A DNA stretch of 64,000 nucleotides from Chloroflexota bacterium (GCA_026706485.1 JAPOYR010000006.1:21194-85193); one strand, 5' to 3'. Numbered from the stretch's first letter, positions 6,639 to 18,737 are shown. Notes: generated by a model not told the origin, from the letters alone. A program made the numbers and translations.

Positions 6639-6983
6639 TCACAGATCAAGAACCAGGCGCACGCCGGCCGCGATCCGGGACAGCAGCCGCCTTGGGGCTT
6701 GGCCGGCCCGCTCGACCAGATAGTCGCGATCCAGCGTTACGACTTGGGTCGCGTTGGCCACCGAATCCCTGGGAAGGCCCACGTCCGCACCGGGAACCAG
6801 GACGTTGCCGGGGGCGTCGAGCAAGCGCATGTTCGTCGTGAGGGCCACAGCGATCACTGTGCGCAGCCGGCTGCGGTTGAACGAATCGGCCTGGATGATG
6901 AGGACGGGACGCCGAAATCCGGGCTCGGAGCCGCGCGGCTCGGCCAGGTCGGCCCACCACACCTCGCCGCGCTCGACTACCAC
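6639..6983 (-). CDS. mazF: MazF/PemK-family endoribonuclease toxin
   Basis: RGEVWWADL...PGFRRPVLIIQ is the canonical PemK/MazF N-terminal signature; 114 aa. Confidence 0.75.
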   Translation of the reverse strand: MVVERGEVWWADLAEPRGSEPGFRRPVLIIQADSFNRSRLRTVIAVALTTNMRLLDAPGNVLVPGADVGLPRDSVANATQVVTLDRDYLVERAGQAPRRLLSRIAAGVRLVLDL

Positions 6984-7213
6984 CCGTCGGCGGTCAGACT
7001 GCGTCCCTGGGCTTGTCTGAGCTCGGGTGCCAGCCCGCTCGGCTGCTCGCCGTAGACCTGGTTCAGGCGCGACGTCACGTCTTGATCCCGGTGCTTTGCA
7101 AGGTGCTCCGCGACGGCGGTGGCGTACAGCTCGCTGCGGGACATTCCCAATGCGTCCGCCAGCGCGTCGGCGGACTCGAAGAGGTCATCGGGGAGCGAGA
7201 TGGCAACTTTCAT
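6977..7213 (-). CDS. Ribbon-helix-helix antitoxin (MazE/CopG-like)
   Basis: 78 aa, MKVAISLPDDLFESADALA RHH N-terminus. Overlaps the MazF gene by 7 nt. Confidence 0.55.
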   Translation of the reverse strand: MKVAISLPDDLFESADALADALGMSRSELYATAVAEHLAKHRDQDVTSRLNQVYGEQPSGLAPELRQAQGRSLTADGW

Positions 7214-7220
7214 ACTCTAA

Positions 7221-7236
7221 TCATACCTTAGTATGA
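7221..7236. promoter_or_regulatory. Palindromic putative operator upstream of the RHH antitoxin gene
   Basis: TCATAC-CTTA-GTATGA perfect inverted repeat within 25 nt of the antitoxin start (minus strand). Typical autoregulatory RHH binding site. Coordinates approximate. Confidence 0.4.
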
Positions 7237-7314
7237 CCACCTTAAAGATGTCGGCATCCGCCTCGCGACACCGTGCGCTCCCGGGCTGCCCGCAACCCGG
7301 GCCACCGCCTGCGA

Positions 7315-7536
7315 CTAACGCAGAAGCCCCAGGAACTCCTCGCGGGTCAGGCCGGCGTCGCGGATCAGCGCCCGCAGCAGTCCACGGCCAAGCTCGCGGT
7401 GTCGGGGTACCGAGAGCCTGCGGCCCGCCGGTCCGATCAGGATCATGTGGCTGCCCTGCGTGCGATCGCGCGTGAATCCAATCCGAGCCACGGCCTTGAC
7501 GAACTCGTCACCCGAAATAACGGGCAGGCGCGCCAC
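7315..7536 (-). CDS. hicA: HicA-family mRNA interferase toxin
   Basis: 73 aa; GFTRDRTQGSHMILIGPAGRRLSVPRH matches the YcfA/HicA dsRBD-like core with catalytic His. GTG start overlaps the hicB stop by 1 nt. Confidence 0.7.
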   Translation of the reverse strand: MARLPVISGDEFVKAVARIGFTRDRTQGSHMILIGPAGRRLSVPRHRELGRGLLRALIRDAGLTREEFLGLLR

Positions 7537-8108
7537 TAGGCGACGGAGACTTCCAGGACCTGGAACTCGGACGAGGCGGGCAGAGGCTCCCCGTGCTCAC
7601 GCATGCTCGCCAGGTAGCCGCGAATGGCCTCGCGGATATTGGCGAGCGCCTCGTCTCGCGTCCGACCCTGGCTATGGCATCCCGGAAGCGTGGGACAGCT
7701 CACCGCCTCCCAGCCGTCCTCGTCGCGCTCGAAGACCACCAGCAGGTTCAGGAGGTCCTGGCCGGCCCCGGGCGCATCCAACGCCACCGTCGCCCCCGGC
7801 GTGGGCTCGGACGCATGAGCCGCGGCGTTCCGCATGGACGCGGAAGCTCTGTACACCCTCGTGTCCGGCCGCTCCGAGATCTGAAACCCGAGTCTGCTGA
7901 GGATTCGGAAGGCGTCTTGTGAGGTGAATCCCGGCGACGTCAGACCGGTGACCAACTGCAGCACTTGCCTGATCGGGAATCGGCGCCCGTGAAGGTCAAT
8001 GAAGTATTTGTGGCGCCCGTCGGCAGCGTTGGGCTCAACGCCCCGCGTGACATCCCGGACGATCTCCGGCGTGATCGTGTACTGCGCGCTTCGAATCCGA
8101 AACTCCAT
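7536..8108 (-). CDS. hicB: HicB-family antitoxin (RNase H-like fold) fused to an unrecognised N-terminal domain
   Basis: C-terminal LLNLLVVFERDEDGWEAVSCPTLPGCHSQGRTRDEALANIREAI is the UPF0150/HicB signature. The N-terminal ~100 aa (MEFRIRSAQYTIT...RLGFQISERP) is not part of canonical HicB. Start chosen at MEFRIRS (ORF extends to 8249). Confidence 0.6.
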   Translation of the reverse strand: MEFRIRSAQYTITPEIVRDVTRGVEPNAADGRHKYFIDLHGRRFPIRQVLQLVTGLTSPGFTSQDAFRILSRLGFQISERPDTRVYRASASMRNAAAHASEPTPGATVALDAPGAGQDLLNLLVVFERDEDGWEAVSCPTLPGCHSQGRTRDEALANIREAIRGYLASMREHGEPLPASSEFQVLEVSVA

Positions 8109-8308
8109 CAAGTATCCCCGGAGTTCTTTCTTCTTTCTCTTACTTCTTCGACGATAGCATGCTCCGCGGATGGTGCAGGAGCCGGCTCCATCCAGTCCGT
8201 CGCGCTCGATGTGGGCGCCAGACAGCAGACCAGGCTCCAAGGCATGCATCCGAACCGTCCGCGGCTTATGGTAGAAATGCTCTCCATGCTTCTACCCTGA
8301 GAATCTCG

Positions 8309-8566
8309 ATGAGCCTCAACATCAAGAACGAAGAGACCTGCCGCCTGGCGCGCGAGTTGGCGCAGCTGACGGGGGAGACCATGACCGGTGCGATTACGGT
8401 TGCGCTGGAGGAGCGTCTAGAGCGCGAGCGGCGCGAACGCAGCGTCGAAGAGCGCCTGCGGGACATGCGCGCGATTGCCGCGCGTTGTGCCAGCCAGCTT
8501 GGCGACGGTCCATCCGCCGCTGATCACGGCGACTTGCTCTATGACGAGCGGGGCCTGCCGAAGTGA
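8309..8566 (+). CDS. vapB: VapB/FitA-like antitoxin
   Basis: 85 aa from MSLNIKNEETCRLARELAQLTGETMTGAI (Rv0623/FitA-like N-terminus). Stop overlaps the GTG start of the downstream PIN gene (GTGA). Confidence 0.55.
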   Translation: MSLNIKNEETCRLARELAQLTGETMTGAITVALEERLERERRERSVEERLRDMRAIAARCASQLGDGPSAADHGDLLYDERGLPK

Positions 8567-8949
8567 TCGTCGATCCCTCAGCCTTGCTGGCGGTGCTGTT
8601 TGGCGAGCCGGACGCGCAGCGCTTTGACGAGGCGATAGCACGGGCGCCGCGCTGCCGGATGTCGGCCGTCGGATTCCTGGAGGCGGCCATCGTCCTGGAG
8701 AGCCGTAGCGGCCCTGTGGCTGGGAACGAGCTCGATGCGTTCCTGCAAGCAGCGGAGATTGAGCTGGTCCCGGTCACCCCCGACCACGCGCGGGCCGCGC
8801 GCGTGGCCTGGCGGCGGTTCGGCAAGGGCAACCACCTGGCGGGACTGAACTTCGGCGACTGTTTCAGCTATGCGCTGGCGGAGGCTGCGCGCGAGCCGTT
8901 GCTGTTCAAGGGCGCGGACTTCGCGCTAACCGATGTCAAGGCGGCCTGA
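8563..8949 (+). CDS. vapC: PIN-domain toxin (VapC/FitB-like)
   Basis: 128 aa, MIVDPSALLAVLFGE PIN N-terminus, conserved acidic residues. Confidence 0.7.
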   Translation: MIVDPSALLAVLFGEPDAQRFDEAIARAPRCRMSAVGFLEAAIVLESRSGPVAGNELDAFLQAAEIELVPVTPDHARAARVAWRRFGKGNHLAGLNFGDCFSYALAEAAREPLLFKGADFALTDVKAA

Positions 8950-9076
8950 TTCCTTACGTCCTCGAATGAGCTGCCGGTGGTTGCCTCCGACACTGCGAGG
9001 TTGACCTCGGGTCCAATCGCACCCCTCGTCACCGCGCCCCCGATCTCCAACATCCCTCACCATCCGCCCGGTCGTG

Positions 9077-9105
9077 TTGTGTGAAATTGTCATATGCCGT
9101 ATAAC
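9077..9105 (+). promoter_or_regulatory. Putative sigma-70-like promoter of the marR gene
   Basis: TTGTGT - 17 nt - TATAAC in an AT-richer patch about 95 nt upstream of the MarR start. AAGGAGAG RBS precedes the ATG. Coordinates approximate. Confidence 0.35.
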
Positions 9106-9198
9106 GAAACAGGCACGGCGACCTAGCCGTTTGCACACCCCCCGCGCGCGACCACGCGATAGCTACGCGCCGGCACGACCAAGGAGAGACCTGCGGGT

Positions 9199-9657
9199 AT
9201 GAGCACGCGAAGCCAAAGCAACGGAAAAACGGACCTCGTCATCCACCGGGTTCTGATTGGGTCCCATCAGGTTTCCGAGTACCTCAACTCGGCCTGCGAG
9301 CGGGCGGGCGTGTCGCTGCCGCTGGCGCGTGCATTGCAGTTCCTGGCCGAGGCCGAAGGCCCGGTCACGCCCACGGAGCTCTCGCGCGAGCTCGGTCGCA
9401 GCCCGGCGGCCACCTCCGAGTTGGTGAAGCGGCTTGTCAACAGCGAGCAGATCACCGCGGACATCGACCCCAATGACCGTCGCTCGTTTCAGCTGGCGCT
9501 CACCAGCCGTGGCCACTCCAAGTGGCAGGGCGTGCGCGCGGAGCTCGAGGCCGCGGAGGCATACATTACTCGCCGCTATGGCAAGCGACAGTTGACGGAG
9601 CTTGCCGGCGCCATCGACGACTTGGCCGCCGCGCTCAACGGCGCCGCATCAGCCTAG
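9199..9657 (+). CDS. MarR-family transcriptional regulator
   Basis: 152 aa winged-helix protein; TPTELSRELGRSPAATSELVKRLV recognition helix region. Confidence 0.8.
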   Translation: MSTRSQSNGKTDLVIHRVLIGSHQVSEYLNSACERAGVSLPLARALQFLAEAEGPVTPTELSRELGRSPAATSELVKRLVNSEQITADIDPNDRRSFQLALTSRGHSKWQGVRAELEAAEAYITRRYGKRQLTELAGAIDDLAAALNGAASA

Positions 9658-11147
9658 GGGCGCAGATACCCGCCGAGCTTGTCGGCGAACTCCTCCGCGG
9701 CGGCGGTGTAGCTCTCGAATGGATTGGGCAGCTCGCAGAGCTTTCCGCGCACCCCGATGCCGGTCCAGTCGATCAGGTAGGGGATGACGTCCCAGCCCCC
9801 GTAGGCGTCGAGTTCGTGCCAGTCCTCGATGTACTGGTAGACAAGAAAGAGTTGGTCGTTCCAGTTCGTCAGCGCGCCGAGGTTGCGGTGGACGTCCTTC
9901 CAGTCGATAAGCGTGTCGGCCTGCGCGTCGACCAGCGCCCGCACGATGCGGCCGCGGGCGCGCGCCCGCGTGCCGGAGGGCACCGCGAGCGGATTCACGT
10001 CCCCCTGCGTGCGGCGGGGCGCCACGCCACGGCGCTGCAATTCGGCAAAGAGGCTCACCGTGGGATCGATGTGGTGATAGGACAGGTCCACCTTCACCAG
10101 ATCGGGATCGGCCCAGCCGTCGGGCGAGTCGTCGGCGAAGCGCCGCAGCTGCTCGAGCTTGGTCACCCAGTCGACCTTGCCCACCAGCATCGTCGGGTCG
10201 GTTTCTAGGCCGTCCAGACACTCGGCCCAGGCGTCCAGGGTCCAGTCGGTGTCGCTGTCGCGCCCGCGGAAGGCGCGCTCGGCGGCGTCCTGATAGATGC
10301 GCTGGATGTCGAGTGCCGACACGCTATGGCCGTCCGCCAACTCAACCGACCACGGGCCGGCCGGATTGCTTGAGATCTCCTTGAGCGTCTGCACCGGCGC
10401 GTGCAGCGCCAGATCCGGACTCCAGCCGCTTTCGAGGAGTTGCGCCACGAGCGCCGTTGAGCCGATCTTCAGCGCGGTGGCGAACTCGCTGCGGTTGGCG
10501 TCGCCCACGATCACGTGCAGCCGCCGCAGCCCCGCGTCGTCGGCCAGCGGCTCGTCGCGCAGATTGACGATGGGCCGACCGCCAAAGCGGACGCGCTGGC
10601 TCATATCGATGGTCACGAACGCCGCCCGCTGCGAGATGTGAAATGGCAAGCCGCCGTCGTCCCGATCGCTGATCGTCATGCCGGCGCCGGCGTAGAGCTG
10701 GCGCGTGGTCAGGAAGGGCATCAGCCCCGTCGCCATGTCGAGACTGAGCGGGCTGCGCCGCACGGCGTAGTTCTCGTGGTAGCCGAAGGTGTTGCCCAGG
10801 TAGTCCGTGTTGTTCTTGATGAAGAACAGGCGGCGATTCAGCTCCTGGCTCTCCACCGCGTCGAGCAGGATGGCGTCCGCCGCGTTCTCCTGCTCCACGA
10901 TGTCGTCCAGCGTGCGGCACTCGGCGGTGGCGTATTCGATGTGGCCGGAGTCCAGGTAGAGCCGCGCGCCATTGAACAGGAAGCCGCCGTTCCCCGGGGC
11001 TTCGTCCCACTCCCGTGGCGCCGGGTCGATGATGCCGAAGCGGCGCTCGGCGAAGATCACGTTCTTGACCATCGTCGCGGCCCGCGACGGCGGAAACTCG
11101 CCGGCGCTGGCGTACTCGATCTCCGTGCCGAACAGCGCGTCCTTCAT
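9654..11147 (-). CDS. pafA: Pup--protein ligase PafA (Pup-ligase/deamidase family, no Dop loop)
   Basis: N-terminal FGTEIEYA, NGARLY, KNNTDYLGNTFGYHENY, NLRDEPLAD, RRLHVIVGDAN motifs of the PafA/Dop carboxylate-amine ligase family. Short spacing between N-terminal motif and NGARLY (no Dop-type insertion). Immediately downstream of pup. Confidence 0.7.
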   Translation of the reverse strand: MKDALFGTEIEYASAGEFPPSRAATMVKNVIFAERRFGIIDPAPREWDEAPGNGGFLFNGARLYLDSGHIEYATAECRTLDDIVEQENAADAILLDAVESQELNRRLFFIKNNTDYLGNTFGYHENYAVRRSPLSLDMATGLMPFLTTRQLYAGAGMTISDRDDGGLPFHISQRAAFVTIDMSQRVRFGGRPIVNLRDEPLADDAGLRRLHVIVGDANRSEFATALKIGSTALVAQLLESGWSPDLALHAPVQTLKEISSNPAGPWSVELADGHSVSALDIQRIYQDAAERAFRGRDSDTDWTLDAWAECLDGLETDPTMLVGKVDWVTKLEQLRRFADDSPDGWADPDLVKVDLSYHHIDPTVSLFAELQRRGVAPRRTQGDVNPLAVPSGTRARARGRIVRALVDAQADTLIDWKDVHRNLGALTNWNDQLFLVYQYIEDWHELDAYGGWDVIPYLIDWTGIGVRGKLCELPNPFESYTAAAEEFADKLGGYLRP

Positions 11148-11159
11148 CAGCCGCGGGGG

Positions 11160-11333
11160 CTACTCCCCGCCGGGCTGCGGCGTCGGATCCGGGATCTCAC
11201 GAATGATGCGACGGACGTGCTCGCCCAGGTCGTCGTCCTCTGCCGGCGCGGTCTCTTCGTCCGGGGCCGTCTTGGCGGGATCGGGCGGCGCTTCGATCTC
11301 GCCCAGCGGGACGGCTCGCCACGTGATGCTCAT
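11160..11333 (-). CDS. pup: Pup-like prokaryotic ubiquitin-like protein (57 aa, C-terminal GGE)
   Basis: Translated by hand from the minus strand: MSITWRAVPLGEIEAPPDPAKTAPDEETAPAEDDDLGEHVRRIIREIPDPTPQPGGE*. Acidic, low-complexity, ends Gly-Gly-Glu. Sits between the dop and pafA homologs in the conserved order. Starts 3 nt after the dop stop, in the same frame. Too short for the 60-aa ORF track. Confidence 0.5.
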   Translation of the reverse strand: MSITWRAVPLGEIEAPPDPAKTAPDEETAPAEDDDLGEHVRRIIREIPDPTPQPGGE

Positions 11334-11336
11334 TCC

Positions 11337-12821
11337 TCATCCTCCTTCGGCGTCAAGCGCGGCCACTACATCATCGATGGTTGCGGCTTCTTCAACCAGG
11401 GCGCTAAGCCGGTCGATGCCGGGTCCGGCGACCTCGTCCAGCCGCACCGTGACGCCAACGCCATTGTGGTGCAAGTGCACCCGATCCCACTCCATAGCCG
11501 TGATTGCCTGGCCGAACCTCGCCAGCAACCTGCCCCGTACGGCGGCCCGGGTGCCTGACGGCGGTGTGGTGCGGGCTGCCTCAACCTGCGCCGGCGTCAC
11601 CAGCGTGCGCATGCGTCCCCGATCCGCCAGCCACTGATGCACGCTGAGCGCCGGGTCGAGCAGGTGATACCCAAAGTCGATGCGCCGCGCGGCATCGGGG
11701 CCTGGGCTTAGCTCCCGCAGGAGGGCCAGCTTGGCTGCCCAGTCGACTCGGTCGGCGGCGGCGCTCGGGTCGCTTCGCAGGTCGTCCAGCACCTGTCGCC
11801 ACTCATCCAGCACCCAATCCGTTTCGGCGTCGCGTCCCCGCAAGCGCTCGCAGGCGTCGAGCCACCACCATTGAATGTTCAGGGGTGATGCCAGCCGACC
11901 GTCGTCGAGCTGGATACCCGCGCCCAGCGAGAGATCGTGCGAGACCTCCCGAACAGCCTTAACGGGATCGCGCAGCCGGATAGGCGCCCGCCATCCGGTC
12001 TCGACCGCATCGAGCACCAGCGCGGTCGTCGCCGCCTTCATTCCTGTGGCCCACTCACTGCGATTGGCGTCGCCCGCGATCACGTGAAGCCGTCGGTAGC
12101 GGCTACGGTCAGCATGCGGCTCGTCGCGCGTGTTGAAAATGGGCCGGCGTGCCGTTGTATTGATGCCCACCACCGTTTCGAAAAAGTCGGCGCGTTGGGA
12201 CAGCTGCAGTGCACCCGCGTCGCCGTCTTCGATGCCCACGCGCCCCGCGCCGGCAAAGACCTGGCGCGTGGCCAGGAAGGGCACCAGGGCGTCGATGAGG
12301 TCGTCGAGCGGCACCGCGCGCAGCGTCAGGTAGTTCTCGTGGCAGCCATAGCTGCGCCCGTGATAGTCCGTGTTGTTCTTGACCAGCCGCACCCGGCCGC
12401 CGTCCAGCCGCGCGTTGTGGGCCTGCTCCGCCGCGTGCATCAGCGCCTCGCCCGCGCGGTCCTGCGCCACTAGGTCTGTCACGGTGCGGCAGGCGTCGGT
12501 GCAGTACTCGGGGTGGTTGTGATCGTTGTAGAGCCGCGCGCCGTTCAGCAGCACGGTGTCGGCCAGCAGCTCTTCGCGGGACATGCGCGAGCTCTGGGCC
12601 GTGGAGCCGAGGAGGTCGTTCGGATCGCGCGCCAGGGCGTCCACGCGGGTGCCGCGCAGGTCGCGCCGCGGGTCCTCGTCGGTGTAGTCCCAGCCGCGAA
12701 ACGCCACCGGCAGTGGCGCCGCATGAATCAGCATCGCCGACTCGAACGCAAAGTCGGGCGGTCCGGCAAATCCCTCGCAGTTGAGGCCGTATTCCGTCTC
12801 GATGCCGACCGGCCGGTTCAT
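11337..12821 (-). CDS. dop: Pup deamidase/depupylase Dop (Pup-ligase family with Dop-loop insertion)
   Basis: Start at MNRPVGIETEYG (aa 71 of ORF). About 75-residue insertion between the GIETEYG and NGARLY motifs, Dop-like. KNNTDYHGRSYGCHENY and RRLHVIAGDAN motifs. C-terminus collinear with mycobacterial Dop. Confidence 0.7.
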   Translation of the reverse strand: MNRPVGIETEYGLNCEGFAGPPDFAFESAMLIHAAPLPVAFRGWDYTDEDPRRDLRGTRVDALARDPNDLLGSTAQSSRMSREELLADTVLLNGARLYNDHNHPEYCTDACRTVTDLVAQDRAGEALMHAAEQAHNARLDGGRVRLVKNNTDYHGRSYGCHENYLTLRAVPLDDLIDALVPFLATRQVFAGAGRVGIEDGDAGALQLSQRADFFETVVGINTTARRPIFNTRDEPHADRSRYRRLHVIAGDANRSEWATGMKAATTALVLDAVETGWRAPIRLRDPVKAVREVSHDLSLGAGIQLDDGRLASPLNIQWWWLDACERLRGRDAETDWVLDEWRQVLDDLRSDPSAAADRVDWAAKLALLRELSPGPDAARRIDFGYHLLDPALSVHQWLADRGRMRTLVTPAQVEAARTTPPSGTRAAVRGRLLARFGQAITAMEWDRVHLHHNGVGVTVRLDEVAGPGIDRLSALVEEAATIDDVVAALDAEGG

Positions 12822-12840
12822 TCGGCAGCTCCGCTGTGCG

Positions 12841-13797
12841 CTATTCCCCGACGGGGATTCCGACGTCCGCGGCTTCGGCGCGTTCGAGCACGACCTGGCC
12901 GAGCGCGATGTCCCACAAGGCGATGCCCTGCGACTCGAACAGCGTGATCTCGTCGGGGCTCGTGCGACCGGGCGCGCGCCCGGCCACCACCTGGCCGAAC
13001 TCGACTGCCTCGCCCCACTGGAAGGCCCCATCCTCGACGGCGCAGATCAGGTCGCCGCACTCAATCTTCGCGCCTTCCAGATCGTCGACGAAGATGCGGT
13101 CGGCGCGGGCAACCGCGGCGCTGTCCAGTTCGCGATGCTGTGGATGGTTGGTGCCCATGGCGATGACGTGGGCGCCGCGTTCAAGCCAGTCGGCCTCGAC
13201 GACGGGGTCGGTGGCGTTGGTGGCCGTGATGACGACCTGCGCGCCGCGCACTGCCGCCTCTGCCGTGGCGGCGGGCTCCAAGTCGACATCGAGCGTGGGC
13301 GACACCTCGGCGATGAGCCGCTCAACGTTGGCCGGATTTCGCGAGTAGACCCGCACCCGCGCCGACGGTCGCACCGCGCACACGGCCTCGAGCTGCGTTC
13401 GCGCCTGCCGGCCCGAGCCGATGATGCCAATGGCTTCAACCTCGGGCGGCGCCAGATACTTCACCGAGACACCGCTCGCGGCGCCGGTGCGAAGACCGCT
13501 GAGACGTCCGGCTTCGATGACCGCGCTCAATGCCCCGCTGGCCGCATCGAACAGCACAACCACGAAGCTGATGCGCCCGCCGGGAACGGTCGGATAAAGC
13601 TTGGCGCCCATGGCGCCGAGCTCGGGATCGGCCGCGCCCATGAGTTGCAGCGCGCCCTGCGCCGTGCGCGCTCGTCGGCGACCGACGTTCGCCGACGTGC
13701 CGCGACCCTGCCGCTCGAACGACGCCTCGACGGTGCGCAGCGCCAGGTCCATATCGGCCAGGCGATCGACGTCCGCTTCGGTCAGGTACCTCGCCAT
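12841..13797 (-). CDS. Ornithine cyclodeaminase / mu-crystallin family protein
   Basis: 318 aa, Rossmann GIIGSGRQA and overall OCD/mu-crystallin architecture. Confidence 0.75.
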   Translation of the reverse strand: MARYLTEADVDRLADMDLALRTVEASFERQGRGTSANVGRRRARTAQGALQLMGAADPELGAMGAKLYPTVPGGRISFVVVLFDAASGALSAVIEAGRLSGLRTGAASGVSVKYLAPPEVEAIGIIGSGRQARTQLEAVCAVRPSARVRVYSRNPANVERLIAEVSPTLDVDLEPAATAEAAVRGAQVVITATNATDPVVEADWLERGAHVIAMGTNHPQHRELDSAAVARADRIFVDDLEGAKIECGDLICAVEDGAFQWGEAVEFGQVVAGRAPGRTSPDEITLFESQGIALWDIALGQVVLERAEAADVGIPVGE

Positions 13798-13864
13798 GTC
13801 GTTCCGTCCGTCTCACAAGGGGTTTGCCACCCGCGGAGCCGCAGCCGACCATGCCGCGAACGCC

Positions 13865-14761
13865 ATGGGCTTTCTCGTTGCACACATTCTATTCGTGGTG
13901 GGCTTTGCGCTCGCCCTGCGCCGGGCGCAGACCCGCGGCTACGACTTCTTCCTCATGACCGGGACGAACTACGCCACCGGTCTGGTCATCGGCGTCGCGT
14001 GGCTGGCCGTCGCCGGAACCGCGACGGTGGACGCCCCGACCGTGCTGCTGGGAATCGTGCAGGGCGCGCGCTTCTCGCTGGCCGTCGTGGCCATCTATTT
14101 GCTGCTGGTGCGCACAGGCGTCGGCATCACCTTCGTGCTGCTGCGCATGTCCGTCATCGTGCCCACCGTGGCCTCGATCGTGTGGTTCGGCGAACGGCCC
14201 GACCCACCGACGGTGGTCGGCATTGCGCTGCTGCTCGCCGCGCTGCCGTTGCTCACGCGCAGCGGCCGCAGCGAGGACGCCCGGCTGCGCGTGTGGTGGT
14301 ATTGGCCGGTGGTCATCGGCACGCTCAGCGTGACCGGCGCCGGCCTCATCGCCGCCAAAGCGTTCGTCGAGGTCGCCCCCATCGAAAACTTGCCGCTTTA
14401 CGCCACCTCGACATTCGCGGCGGCCACCGCCATCGCGCTGGCGACCTACCTCATGCGGCGGCGCATCCAGCCGGCGCCTCGCCCGGCCGACGCGCCAGGT
14501 TCACTTGGCTTCGGGCGCGGGTTCTTCCGCGAACCGCTGGGCCTCGGAGTCGTGACCGGCGGCGTCAACATGGGCCAGCTGGTGCTCATTCTGCTGGCGC
14601 TGCGGGACGTGCCGGGCACGATCGTCTTTCCGGCCCAGAGCGCCGGATCCGCGCTGCTCACCATCGCCGCGGGCTACCTGCTCTGGCACGAGCGCCACAG
14701 CCGCGGGACGCTGGCGGGAGCCGGCTTGGCCGCGGTTGGGCTGGTGCTCGTCAGCATCTGA
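13865..14761 (+). CDS. Polytopic membrane protein (DMT/EamA-like permease, tentative)
   Basis: About 10 predicted TM helices. Start placed at MGFLVAHIL to avoid overlap with the divergent OCD gene. Confidence 0.4.
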   Translation: MGFLVAHILFVVGFALALRRAQTRGYDFFLMTGTNYATGLVIGVAWLAVAGTATVDAPTVLLGIVQGARFSLAVVAIYLLLVRTGVGITFVLLRMSVIVPTVASIVWFGERPDPPTVVGIALLLAALPLLTRSGRSEDARLRVWWYWPVVIGTLSVTGAGLIAAKAFVEVAPIENLPLYATSTFAAATAIALATYLMRRRIQPAPRPADAPGSLGFGRGFFREPLGLGVVTGGVNMGQLVLILLALRDVPGTIVFPAQSAGSALLTIAAGYLLWHERHSRGTLAGAGLAAVGLVLVSI

Positions 14762-14814
14762 AAGCGGCGGTTGCGGGCGAGCAAACTCGTGCCCACGCGC
14801 ATGTGGCTGCGCTC

Positions 14815-14905
14815 GCCTCGTTCGTGGTGAGCCTGTCGAACCACGACCCTTCGACAAGCTCAGAGCCCGCCCTGAGCTAGCCGAAGGGGCGAACGGACTG
14901 GCGGT
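14815..14905. repeat. Intergenic repeat family E copy 1
   Basis: cgttcgtggtgagcctgtcgaaccacgacccttcgacaagctcag...ggcgaacgg. Second copy at 33818-33875. Source of the spurious VVSLSNH...FDKLRA peptide ORFs. Confidence 0.6.
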
Positions 14906-14970
14906 CGGCTCTGGCCGCGGCCCATGTCGGGCGGCTAGCCTACGTCCGTCGGCATCCCCGGAAGCAGCGC

Positions 14971-16113
14971 ATGAAGATCTCCAAGCTGCAATGCGATTTC
15001 ATCTGGACGGGTTCCCGCAACTGGCTCATCGTGCGCGTGCACACCGACGCGGGCATCACCGGCATCGGCGAGGCGTTTCCGATCGGACCCGACCGCGCCA
15101 TTGCCGAGACAGTCGATTACTTCCAATCGTGGATCGGAGGCTGGGATCCGTTCGACATCGAGCGCGTCTGGCACGAGCTCTACGCCGGCAGCCGCTTTCC
15201 CACCGGCTCGATCATCACGTCGGCCATCAGCGGCATCGACCAGGCGCTGTGGGACATCAAGGGCCGGGCGCTCGGCGTGCCGGTCTACGAGCTGCTCGGG
15301 GGCAAGGTGCGCGACCGCATCCGCGTCTACCAGTCGCCCGAGGGCGAGACGCCCGCCGCGCTTGCGGACGACGCTCGCCGCCTGGTCGAGCGCTATGGCT
15401 TCACCGCGCTCAAGATCGGCCCCTTCGCCGCGGCCGCCGACGCCTGGCCGTGGAGCCGGCAGGTCGATAGCGCCGAGGAAAGACTGGCGGCCGTGCGCGA
15501 CGCGGTCGGTCCCGACATCGACATCGGCGTCGATCCCCACGCCAAGATCTTCGAGCCCGTGCGCGCGCTGGAGATGGCCGAGCGACTGAAGCCTTATCGT
15601 CCGATGTTCTTCGAGGAACCGGTGCGGCCCGAGAACTTCGAGGCCCTGGCCAAGCTCACCGCCAAGAGTCCCATCCCCATCGCCACCGGCGAGGCGGTGT
15701 TCACCAAGTTCCAGTTCCGCGACCTGCTGGCGACGGGCGCCGCCGACATCATCCAGCCCGACGTGGCCGCCACGGGCGGGCTGACGGAGATGAAGAAGAT
15801 CGCGGCCATGGCCGAGGCGCACTACGTCAGCGTCGCGCCGCACAACCCGCTGGGACCGCTGGCGACGACGTCCAACGTGCACTTCGCCGCCACCGCGCCC
15901 AACTTCCTCATCCTCGAGTATCACGCCGACGACGTGGGCCTGCGGGCCGAAATCCTGCACGAGCCGCTGAAGCTGGAGGACGGCTACGTAGTGCTGCCCG
16001 ACGCGCCGGGACTGGGCGTCGAGTTGAACGAGGAGGTGTTCGAGAAATACCCCTACCGCCCCTGGCGCCGCGGCCGCCCCACCAAGGCGGACGGGATGTT
16101 GGCGTTCATCTAG
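14971..16113 (+). CDS. Enolase-superfamily sugar-acid dehydratase (mandelate racemase/muconate lactonizing enzyme family)
   Basis: 380 aa; D-galactonate/L-fuconate dehydratase-like. Metal-ligand region IDIGVDPH...FEEP...DIIQPD. Its TAG stop lies inside the transposon target-site duplication. Confidence 0.8.
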   Translation: MKISKLQCDFIWTGSRNWLIVRVHTDAGITGIGEAFPIGPDRAIAETVDYFQSWIGGWDPFDIERVWHELYAGSRFPTGSIITSAISGIDQALWDIKGRALGVPVYELLGGKVRDRIRVYQSPEGETPAALADDARRLVERYGFTALKIGPFAAAADAWPWSRQVDSAEERLAAVRDAVGPDIDIGVDPHAKIFEPVRALEMAERLKPYRPMFFEEPVRPENFEALAKLTAKSPIPIATGEAVFTKFQFRDLLATGAADIIQPDVAATGGLTEMKKIAAMAEAHYVSVAPHNPLGPLATTSNVHFAATAPNFLILEYHADDVGLRAEILHEPLKLEDGYVVLPDAPGLGVELNEEVFEKYPYRPWRRGRPTKADGMLAFI

Positions 16114-17780: not shown

Positions 17781-18737
17781 CTACCGCTTGGGGTAGGCCC
17801 GCCCGCCGGCCGTGAGGTCCGCGTAGGTCAGGCGTTCGCCCACCATCCGGGCCGCAACCTCGCCCATGAGGTCCGCCGTGTCGAGTTCCCGGAGGCTCTG
17901 CCGGGTGGCCATCTCGTCCACGTAGCGCTGCAAGTGCTTGGGGCTGAAGTGGTGGTACGTCCCGTGGTAGGCCCGCTTGAGCATGGCCCAGAAGGACTCG
18001 ATGCCGTTCGTGTGCGCCTGGTCGTTCACGTACTCGCCCACACTGTGGCGGACGGTCTCGTGGTGCGGCAGGTGGTCGTAGGCCGGGTGCTCGTCCGTGT
18101 AGACCATGGCGTCCGGCGCCGCGTGGGCCGTGATGAAGAGGGCTAGCACGCTGCGGTTGATGTGGGTGATCGCCTGGGCGCGGACCTCGCGCGTCGTGCG
18201 GTCGCGCATGGCGATCACCGGAGCCTTGCCGATCGTCCCACGCCCGCGGTGCTGGCGATCCCGCGCGTGGCGGTTCTTCTCGCGGCCGCCGAAGTAGGAC
18301 TCGTCCACTTCGACCGGCCCGTCCAGCAAGTGGTCGTCAGCCGCCAGCGCTTCGCGGATGCGGTGGGCCATGAACCACGCGGACTTCTGCGTGATCTCGA
18401 GGTCGCGGTGGAGTTTCAGGCTCGACACGCCCTTGAGGTTCGTGGTGCTCAGGTAGATGCCCCACGCCCACTGGCGGAGCGTGATCTTGGAGCGCTCCAT
18501 GACGGTGCCGATCCGCACGCTGAAGTACTGGCGGCAGTCACGGCACCGGTAGGGCATGGGCTTGCCGCTGGCGACCGGCGTCACGTGCTCGCCGTCGCAG
18601 CGCGCGCACCGGACGCCATCGGGCCAGCGCTGGGCCTCAAACCACCGGCGGGCGGATTCCTCGTTCGGGAACCGGTCGGCCAGTTCCATGACGCTGATGC
18701 CCTCGCGGTGCGCTCGTCCGGGTCCCTTGGTCGCCAT
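17781..18737 (-). CDS. IS1595-family (ISXO2-like) DDE transposase
   Basis: 318 aa; N-terminal zinc-ribbon (CARCDGEH...CRDCRQYF), SYFGGREKN, GKAPVIAMRDRTT, YTDEHPAY motifs characteristic of IS1595/ISXO2 transposases. Confidence 0.85.
   Translation of the reverse strand: MATKGPGRAHREGISVMELADRFPNEESARRWFEAQRWPDGVRCARCDGEHVTPVASGKPMPYRCRDCRQYFSVRIGTVMERSKITLRQWAWGIYLSTTNLKGVSSLKLHRDLEITQKSAWFMAHRIREALAADDHLLDGPVEVDESYFGGREKNRHARDRQHRGRGTIGKAPVIAMRDRTTREVRAQAITHINRSVLALFITAHAAPDAMVYTDEHPAYDHLPHHETVRHSVGEYVNDQAHTNGIESFWAMLKRAYHGTYHHFSPKHLQRYVDEMATRQSLRELDTADLMGEVAARMVGERLTYADLTAGGRAYPKR

Follow-up and report, generated by a model that had tools for sequence, protein, structure and literature searches.

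Among the bacterial counterparts of ubiquitination, pupylation is the only widespread one to employ a disordered tag. Actinobacteria and a small number of other phyla are known to have it, and in nearly all discussions it features as a signal that targets proteins to the proteasome. The locus described here raises the question of whether members of the Chloroflexota possess a system of this type, whether its tag is Pup, and whether it serves a proteasome. The locus lies in a 64,000-nucleotide stretch of a metagenome-assembled genome (MAG; GCA_026706485.1, JAPOYR010000006.1:21194-85193, listed as 'Chloroflexi bacterium'), which is referred to below as the window, and it comprises a Dop-like gene, a small open reading frame (ORF) for a Pup-like tag, and a PafA-like gene. 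It is probable that these three genes suffice for a pupylation-type module that tags proteins reversibly, has its own tag family and probably operates independently of the proteasome. This functional reading is based on strict synteny, purifying selection on the tag, a tag terminus restricted to Glu or Gln, Dop and PafA signature residues, and intact active sites.

All three genes are encoded on the minus strand. The Dop-like gene (11337..12821) specifies 494 amino acids from the start MNRPVGIETEYG (GenBank MCY3783112.1, 'PafA2 family protein'); its longest possible ORF reaches 13031, but would overlap the upstream gene. The tag ORF (11160..11333) specifies 57 amino acids (MSITW...PQPGGE), and the PafA-like gene (9654..11147; MCY3783110.1) specifies 497. 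The two enzyme genes are separated by 189 bp, within which the tag ORF starts 3 nt past the TGA of the Dop-like gene and in frame with it, while the ATG of the PafA-like gene follows 12 nt past the TAG of the tag. A GGAGGA Shine-Dalgarno site for the tag ORF, read from the sequence at 11340..11345 (minus strand), is embedded in the last codons and stop of the Dop-like gene, with a 6-nt spacer to the tag ATG at 11333. A preliminary description of this DNA had proposed a dop-pup-pafA pupylation locus, in which two Pup-ligase-family genes flank a 189-bp gap holding an unannotated 57-amino acid Pup that ends in GGE. The coordinates, frame and ending of the ORF agree with that proposal, and both large genes match the Pfam Pup_ligase family (PF03136), with 475 bits for the upstream and 357 bits for the downstream product. 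The ORF was missing only from the annotation track then used; GenBank lists it as a hypothetical protein (MCY3783111.1), and names both enzymes 'proteasome accessory factor PafA2 family protein'.

The 57-amino acid ORF is a real coding gene under strong purifying constraint, and a chance ORF is excluded. This follows from the contrast between synonymous and nonsynonymous differences across the last 16 codons in 60 distinct nucleotide versions, where the proportion of synonymous differences (pS) is 0.587 and that of nonsynonymous differences (pN) is 0.033, giving a pN/pS of about 0.056. A word-indexed search of 5.8 billion proteins recovered 36 homologs of 54-72 amino acids, and homolog and profile searches together extend the length range of the family to 54-100 amino acids. 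In an alignment of these homologs (A1) the final 19 positions (L..RRIIREIPDPTPQPGG) are invariant and the N-terminus is variable, with the last residue being either E or Q. When one genome per GTDB species was scanned, 59 loci with the tag were found, all of them in Chloroflexota MAGs (from sponge, marine, lake and groundwater samples) and none in any other phylum; the scan relied on motif patterns, so that variant tags were missed. Complete chromosomes with the triad include OZ244789.1, OZ253558.1, OZ244806.1, OZ252242.1 and OZ243944.1. The terminal codon specifies Glu in 31 of the 60 distinct versions and Gln in the remaining 29, and is preceded by PGG in every one. Parsimony on the enzyme tree places at least five independent switches between the two residues. 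A terminus limited to Glu and Gln fits a system that contains a Gln deamidase, as is the case for Pup (Iyer et al. 2008, PMC2588565).

Two other accounts of the 189-bp gap were rejected. A structured RNA is at odds with the lack of any Rfam match in the window, including the gap, and with the codon-level selection, which identifies the gap as coding. Programmed read-through into a Dop-tag fusion was rejected because the in-frame 3-nt spacing is not conserved; the Dop-tag gaps among relatives are 3, 4, 7 and 42 nt, in addition to one overlapping arrangement. A promoter and terminator scan of positions 9000-15200 gave nothing exceeding the shuffled expectation, and PADLOC returned no defence-system matches.

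The tag resembles Pup in its general properties but not in its sequence. Its translation is MSITWRAVPLGEIEAPPDPAKTAPDEETAPAEDDDLGEHVRRIIREIPDPTPQPGGE, with a net charge of -9 and 10 prolines, including those at positions 16, 17, 19, 24, 30, 48, 50, 52 and 54. A variable N-terminus is followed by a conserved E-x-E-A-P-x-(K/D)-P motif, an acidic linker rich in Pro and Thr, an amphipathic DDLGEHVRRIIRE segment, and a near-invariant IPDPTPQPGG before the final E. Tight constraint is confined to the C-terminal ~24 residues (D-L-x-E-x-h-x-R-I-I-R-E-I-P-D-P-T-P-Q-P-G-G-E/Q). A second, weaker motif, E-[TVI]-[ED]-A-P-x-[KRD]-P, is located about 30 residues before the C-terminus (residues ~12-19; window 11277-11300, minus strand), and one of its prolines is shared by at least 90% of 52 distinct tags; a reader protein might dock at this motif, ETEAPxKP. 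The AlphaFold2 model of the tag alone, built from a 37-sequence alignment, has a mean predicted local distance difference test score of 66, a predicted template modelling score of 0.16 and no secondary structure, so the tag is predicted to be an intrinsically disordered small protein, as is known for Pup. The GG[EQ] end, the small size, which is typically 50-90 amino acids in Pup, the predicted disorder and the neighbouring Dop/PafA-family gene are all properties of Pup-type tags. The computed tryptic remnant that the tag would leave on a lysine is EIPDPTPQPGGE (+1217.556 Da).

No homology between the tag and Pup is detectable by sequence comparison. With a threshold of E<=10, neither the window peptide nor either of two divergent relatives matched any profile in Pfam or NCBIfam, those of Pup (PF05639 and TIGR03687) included, while Mycobacterium tuberculosis Pup, used as a positive control in the same runs, scored 3e-22 and 4e-21, respectively (the control sequence was validated by its own profile match). 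A profile of the tag family retrieved no Pup chain from the PDB, and hhalign comparison of alignment A1 with an alignment of 24 genuine Pups (A2) gave a probability of 0.3% over 2 aligned columns. An exhaustive HMMER search of 1.84 billion representatives with the tag profile retrieved only the tag's own family (23 clusters with variants of the same motif) besides one weak match of 380 amino acids. Membership of the Pup family was rejected on these five comparisons, and with it the identification of the peptide as Pup in the preliminary description. The DDLGEHVRRIIRE segment looks similar to helix 1 of Pup (DDLLDEIDDVLEE), a likeness that is visual and without statistical support. As had been noted, the C-terminus departs from the FVxxYVQKGGQ consensus, with IPDPTPQP occupying the position of Pup helix 2 (FVRAYVQK). 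By its composition IPDPTPQP cannot be helical, and because the middle region is rich in proline, nothing like the Mpa-binding helix is to be expected in the tag, which on this sequence argument has neither a counterpart of that central helical region nor the two C-terminal helices that occupy the enzyme groove. Since the Pup profiles find no match, the tag would work like Pup without being a sequence member of its family.

The lone match outside the family in the exhaustive search (P0056, 380 amino acids; E = 6e-4) carries three RELLRELPDPGPMP repeats of the form (R/V)(E/D)LLRELPDPGPMP, after which comes a probable transmembrane segment. These repeats resemble the IREIPDPTPQP of the tag, and the likeness may be due to chance or to a recurring short linear motif.

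The upstream enzyme has a pronounced Dop character. Dop is its best NCBIfam family (TIGR03688, 408 bits, versus 332 for PafA), and in comparisons with the PDB it matched Dop 4b0r with 340 bits (E = 3e-100) and PafA with 200 bits. Its GhExE motif is separated from NGAR by about 81 residues, compared to 76 in canonical Dop and 46 in the downstream enzyme, in agreement with the long Dop-type insertion reported earlier; across the Chloroflexota clade to which it belongs (Chl-D, or D clade), this spacing ranges from 80 to 117 residues. The Dop loop, which in Dop is an insertion of 40-65 residues ahead of beta2 with a conserved Trp, is present with its invariant WDY (Trp47) in all 61 members of this clade, as is the Dop-specific His96, while Glu211 is found in 55, Gly215 in 60 and the alpha-loop Thr217 in 60. 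At positions 85, 216 and 221, which are among the residues that discriminate Dop from PafA (Hecht 2020, PMC7947786), the D clade has conservative equivalents of the Dop state. Its departures from Dop include Val94 to Asn, Ala97 to Asn, Ser102 to Cys and Pro104 to Asp or Glu. The active site of Acidothermus cellulolyticus Dop (AcelDop) comprises Glu8, Glu10, Tyr92, Asp94, Glu99, His155, Arg227 and His241, which serve Mg/ATP binding and catalysis (PMC8599861), and all eight residues are invariant in the 61 sequences. We therefore have good confidence in regarding the D-clade enzyme as a putative Dop-type hydrolase, which would have deamidase and depupylase activity.

The downstream enzyme is closer to PafA. 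It was described earlier as PafA-like, with which the lack of the Dop loop agrees, and in part also a number of PafA residues. Its NCBIfam score is higher for PafA (TIGR03686, 290 bits) than for Dop (256 bits), and its GhExE-NGAR spacing of 46 residues compares with 37 in canonical PafA. Its clade (Chl-P, or P clade) is in the PafA state at Phe47, Leu56, Ala65, Thr66, Ala67, Ser180 and Asp418. In Dop, the loop Trp47 stacks on Arg90 and Tyr92, and Thr217 forms a hydrogen bond with the terminal residue of Pup; the D clade keeps both of these residues and the P clade neither, having Val in place of Thr217. Among 63 P-clade sequences the eight active-site residues are invariant, except that Tyr92 is replaced by Leu in 8. 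In a neighbour-joining (NJ) tree the D and P clades are each monophyletic with 100% bootstrap support, and their sequences point to separate clades that are deep sisters to Dop and PafA and not their equivalogs. On this evidence the P-clade enzyme is the putative ligase, an assignment that we make with moderate confidence.

Two irregularities concern the PafA-like gene. In one close relative (L001, 10187-11679) it is split into ORFs of 383 and 114 amino acids, the gene being a frameshift pseudogene or else misassembled, and the Dop-like gene and tag are intact. The 90%-identity cluster of the window's 497-amino acid protein also holds many proteins of 273 amino acids that come from Acidimicrobiia and unclassified bacteria and bear the name 'cysteine hydrolase', which looks like a clustering or indexing artefact.

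The three genes form a conserved unit. Synteny was examined in the window and 68 related loci of 5-20 kb each (69 in total, 1.25 Mb), and the order Dop-like, tag, PafA-like on one strand holds in all 69 wherever the flank is long enough, including the locus with the most divergent tag variant, KLPDPTPQPGGE. The pairwise distances of the D and P enzymes are correlated (r = 0.955), which indicates that the two are co-inherited. Clustering of 1,981 flanking ORFs from the 69 loci yielded no universal partner gene; the gene caller, which was based on GC content at third codon positions, mis-called some loci and served only to choose neighbours for Pfam comparison. In the window's lineage the neighbourhood consists of EamA, MR_MLE and ornithine cyclodeaminase (OCD) genes on one side and MarR and toxin-antitoxin genes on the other. 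A second lineage has a ClpB-like AAA gene, accDA, PFK and Metallophos on one side and cNMP-binding, AKR and RNR genes on the other, and further lineages have CoA-transferase, Fe-ADH, UDG, CBS and enolase-family genes. The immediate neighbours in divergent lineages are thus unrelated metabolic genes, and given such varied neighbourhoods without a universal partner, the conserved unit is the triad alone.

Homologs of Mpa, PrcA and PrcB were sought by tblastn with queries taken from two canonical loci, and none was found at E<=1 in the 64-kb window and the 68 related loci; as a positive control, Dop and PafA queries matched all 69 loci. Chloroflexi are not known to carry 20S proteasomes. They are also missing from the phyla listed in the literature as having Dop/PafA or Pup, Dop/PafA homologs being recorded in Actinobacteria, Nitrospirae, NC10, Armatimonadetes, Verrucomicrobia, Nitrospinae, Firmicutes, Proteobacteria and Planctomycetes, and literature searches for pupylation and its components in this phylum returned nothing relevant. 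There is precedent for such modules without a linked proteasome, because Pup/PafA loci of this kind, with ligases bearing transmembrane insertions, have been described in Plesiocystis and Rhodopirellula (Iyer et al. 2008, PMC2588565), although those systems differ from the one in Chloroflexota.

How the module might work can be proposed by analogy with Pup. The PafA-like enzyme would bind the C-terminal segment of the tag and use ATP to phosphorylate the gamma-carboxylate of its terminal Glu, and the activated Glu would then be passed to the epsilon-amine of a lysine in a target protein. The Dop-like enzyme would deamidate tags ending in Gln, which make up about half of the family, and would remove the tag from its substrates. 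Since the window tag already ends in Glu, it would be ready for ligation, and its Dop-like enzyme would act as an eraser only. Because IPDPTPQP cannot form helix 2 of Pup, docking in the enzyme groove would have to differ in detail, and may perhaps involve one amphipathic helix and an extended Pro-rich segment. With similar reserve, it can be suggested that tagged proteins are probably not degraded through Mpa and the proteasome, given the proline-rich middle region without an Mpa-binding helix and the lack of linked Mpa or proteasome genes in the 69 loci. As a guess, tagging might instead be regulatory, or the ETEAPxKP motif might be recognised by another kind of reader.

Several observations weigh against the proposal of a proteasome-independent tagging module. 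Both enzymes score under the equivalog cutoffs of their families (408 versus 492.3 bits for Dop; 290 versus 551.3 bits for PafA). The assignment of the downstream gene as the ligase is weaker than that of its partner, as its scores against PafA 4b0t and Dop in the PDB are close (223 bits with E = 1e-65 versus 205 bits), and canonical PafA from a mycobacterial locus matches both paralogs equally in tblastn. In the P clade the Val58 insertion is missing, little of the alpha-helix signature of PafA (HxWEGxSSAxxRS) is present, and most positions in the alpha region match neither PafA nor Dop. The NJ grouping of Dop with the D clade and PafA with the P clade has 60.5% bootstrap support, against 39% for the alternative, in a tree with few references, all from Mycobacteriales, and no outgroup. 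To these can be added the want of detectable homology between tag and Pup. The absence of proteasome and Mpa genes, which the preliminary description had also noted, holds for the neighbourhood and is established for flanks of up to +/-10 kb only, not for whole genomes. That the tag would work like Pup is proposed by analogy, and a protein lysine as the putative acceptor, rather than another amine, likewise follows from the comparison with PafA and Pup. The idea of a pupylation-type locus stands well as a functional reading, whereas the family assignment of the peptide does not.

The candidate module can be compared with several known systems. It shares with actinobacterial pupylation (PF05639, TIGR03686, TIGR03688) a small disordered tag with a GG[EQ] end, a tag gene beside one of Dop type, a pair of paralogous enzymes of Dop and PafA type with the same active-site residues, the WDY Dop loop, and alternation of E and Q between lineages. 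It differs in that its tag has no detectable sequence similarity to Pup and carries IPDPTPQP in place of helix 2 (FVxxYVQK), that an Mpa-binding helix and linked mpa and prcBA genes are missing, that its enzymes form deep separate clades under the equivalog cutoffs, and that its genes form a tight dop-tag-pafA operon. The Plesiocystis and Rhodopirellula loci (PMC2588565) similarly combine a Pup-type tag and one or more ligase homologs without linked proteasome genes, but their ligases carry an insertion with four transmembrane segments and are linked to a membrane protein, whereas the Chloroflexota enzymes are soluble-sized (about 495-530 amino acids). In addition, the tags of those loci are recovered as Pup orthologs by profile, unlike the Chloroflexota tag.

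Two further systems provide points of reference. Corynebacterium glutamicum, which is not known to have a proteasome, pupylates proteins with a Pup ending in GGE, PafA, Dop and ARC, and uses this system in ferritin disassembly. It therefore offers a precedent for a Glu-ending, ligation-ready tag and for non-degradative pupylation without a 20S proteasome, although its Pup is canonical and works with an ARC/Mpa unfoldase, while the Chloroflexota tag belongs to another family and has no linked ARC-like gene. UBact is reportedly found in Nitrospirota, Verrucomicrobiota, Planctomycetota and others, and is said to end in R-[TS]-G-[EQ] and to sit with Mpa and proteasome homologs. Both UBact and the present tag are Pup-like tags outside Actinobacteria that lie beside Dop/PafA homologs; the Chloroflexota tag differs, by description only, in ending with P-G-G-[EQ] and in having no linked Mpa or Prc genes. 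The tag found no match in NCBIfam, a library in which the presence of a UBact model is unconfirmed, and the exhaustive search with the tag profile retrieved only its own family; as far as can be tested, the tag does not appear to be a member of UBact. A more specific proposal, to which we lend slightly less than even weight, is that the tag represents a third family of Pup-type modifiers. Such a family would be confined to Chloroflexota and share no sequence ancestry with Pup or UBact. It would be encoded in a minimal operon of writer, eraser and tag without proteasome or Mpa and would dock through one helix and a polyproline-like PDPTPQP segment, while its ETEAPxKP motif could serve a reader.

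There are several potential alternatives to a self-contained module. The locus may be part of a canonical Pup-proteasome pathway, with Mpa/ARC and prcBA elsewhere in the genome and the peptide being a highly diverged true Pup that continues to bring substrates to a proteasome. Linkage is not obligatory, since Actinobacteria often have pafA several kilobases from dop-pup-prcBA and mpa, and this possibility draws further support from the restriction of the searched DNA to flanks and from the GG[EQ] end and disorder that tag and Pup have in common. We nevertheless regard it as unlikely, in view of the failure to find Mpa, PrcA or PrcB in the window or the related loci, the prolines at positions 16, 17, 19, 24 and 30 that leave no equivalent of the Mpa-binding helix, the null profile-profile comparison, and the omission of Chloroflexi from the phylum lists and from the known holders of 20S proteasomes.

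A second alternative, which seems equally improbable, is that the peptide serves as a scaffold or precursor whose C-terminal Glu or Gln is modified with a small-molecule amine by the two ATP-dependent ligase homologs, the amine maybe being derived from OCD activity, to give a peptide-borne metabolite or a product resembling ribosomally synthesized and post-translationally modified peptides. The Pup_ligase family does lie within the glutamine-synthetase/GCS2 superfamily of carboxylate-amine ligases (Iyer et al. 2008, PMC2588565), and a scaffold would also fit with so highly conserved a short recognition sequence at the C-terminus. The OCD/mu-crystallin gene is located 19-47 nt upstream of the triad, on the same strand, in 35 of the 69 loci, but all of these belong to one sub-lineage, and elsewhere its place is taken by Metallophos, PFK, CoA-transferase and other genes. 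Moreover, the clustering of flanking ORFs revealed no conserved maturation protease, transporter or tailoring enzyme, the D-clade enzyme keeps hydrolase-specific Dop features, and deamidation followed by ligation would be the simplest account of the E/Q alternation. OCD thus appears to be a lineage-specific neighbour, possibly co-transcribed with the triad, rather than a universal part of the module.

It is also conceivable, though considerably less probable than either of these, that the peptide remains unconjugated and is a regulatory or inhibitory partner that fills the groove of one or both enzymes, which would then act on other substrates. No conjugates have been observed, and the C-terminus of the tag is more conserved than the enzymes, as would be expected of a tight binder; a pure binder, however, needs neither a last residue limited to E or Q nor the preceding GG, and both enzymes retain the full machinery for gamma-carboxylate activation. 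Finally, spurious ORFs are common in GC-rich DNA, and this region has several overlapping ones on its plus strand, but the chance that the 57-amino acid ORF is one of them in a GC-rich spacer is negligible given its low pN/pS with near-saturated synonymous change across 60 nucleotide versions and 59 species, its Shine-Dalgarno site and its conserved position.

If a tagging module of the pupylation type is indeed encoded here, such systems would extend to a major, mostly uncultured phylum with abundant sponge, marine and lake lineages, which would allow the role of pupylation in the absence of a proteasome to be tested in a natural setting and would bear on the origin of the Dop/PafA pair. Should the tag prove to be a third family, the deep branching of both enzyme clades beside Dop and PafA would imply that the Dop/PafA duplication and reversible tagging predate proteasome coupling or are independent of it. 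The idea that pupylation began in Actinobacteria, as a signal for degradation, would then be open to challenge. What is put forward is a computational proposal within a known paradigm, namely a Pup-type module that is specific to Chloroflexota and uses a new family of tags. At the level of annotation, the GenBank label 'hypothetical protein' for the tag and the generic 'PafA2 family' for both enzymes can be corrected.

The genes around the triad in the window are as follows. The OCD/mu-crystallin gene (12841..13797, minus strand; PF02423, 214 bits) lies 19 nt upstream of the Dop-like gene, and a convergent MarR-family regulator (9199..9657, plus strand; Pfam MarR_2 and MarR) overlaps the stop of the PafA-like gene by 4 nt, both as first described. 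MarR is found downstream in 33 of the 69 loci and is lineage-specific. Beyond MarR is a toxin-antitoxin island (6977-8949) that contains genes for an RHH protein (6977-7213, minus strand), HicA (7315-7536, minus strand), a HicB-like protein (7536-8249, minus strand), a VapB-like PSK_trans_fac protein (within 8159-8566, plus strand) and a PIN/VapC protein (8563-8949, plus strand). Three relatives (L001-L003) have PemK, PhdYeFM, a pentapeptide protein and a DDE transposase at this spot instead, and as the toxin-antitoxin sets differ among close relatives, the region is a hypervariable islet beside the conserved triad. On the far side of the triad, an IS1595-family transposase gene (DDE_Tnp_IS1595 with a zinc ribbon; 17781-18737, minus strand) has no counterpart at the corresponding place in those related loci for which gene lists were inspected.

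Other features are confined to related lineages. In 18 loci of the sub-lineage with GGQ-ending tags, a gene of about 318 amino acids without a Pfam domain follows the PafA-like gene by about 100 nt on the same strand (e.g., L004, 11784-12740); it is absent from the window, and its product may be an accessory of that lineage or a substrate. A Metallophos phosphoesterase gene, the stop of which overlaps or abuts the start of the Dop-like gene, is present in L005-L007, L020-L024, L030 and L071-L072, and in most of these loci the start of a gene for a cNMP-binding protein of about 340 amino acids overlaps the stop of the PafA-like gene. About 4 kb upstream in the same loci, past accDA and a divergent PFK gene, is a ClpB/ClpC-like ATPase with two AAA domains (about 680 amino acids), which is the sole unfoldase-like gene seen near any triad and is probably unrelated. 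Two lake MAGs with the triad (L033 and L042) are titled 'Thermoflexus hugenholtzii JAD2 isolate', a label that is probably a taxonomy placeholder rather than a sign of the cultured strain; their tags and enzymes cluster among those of other freshwater Chloroflexota MAGs.

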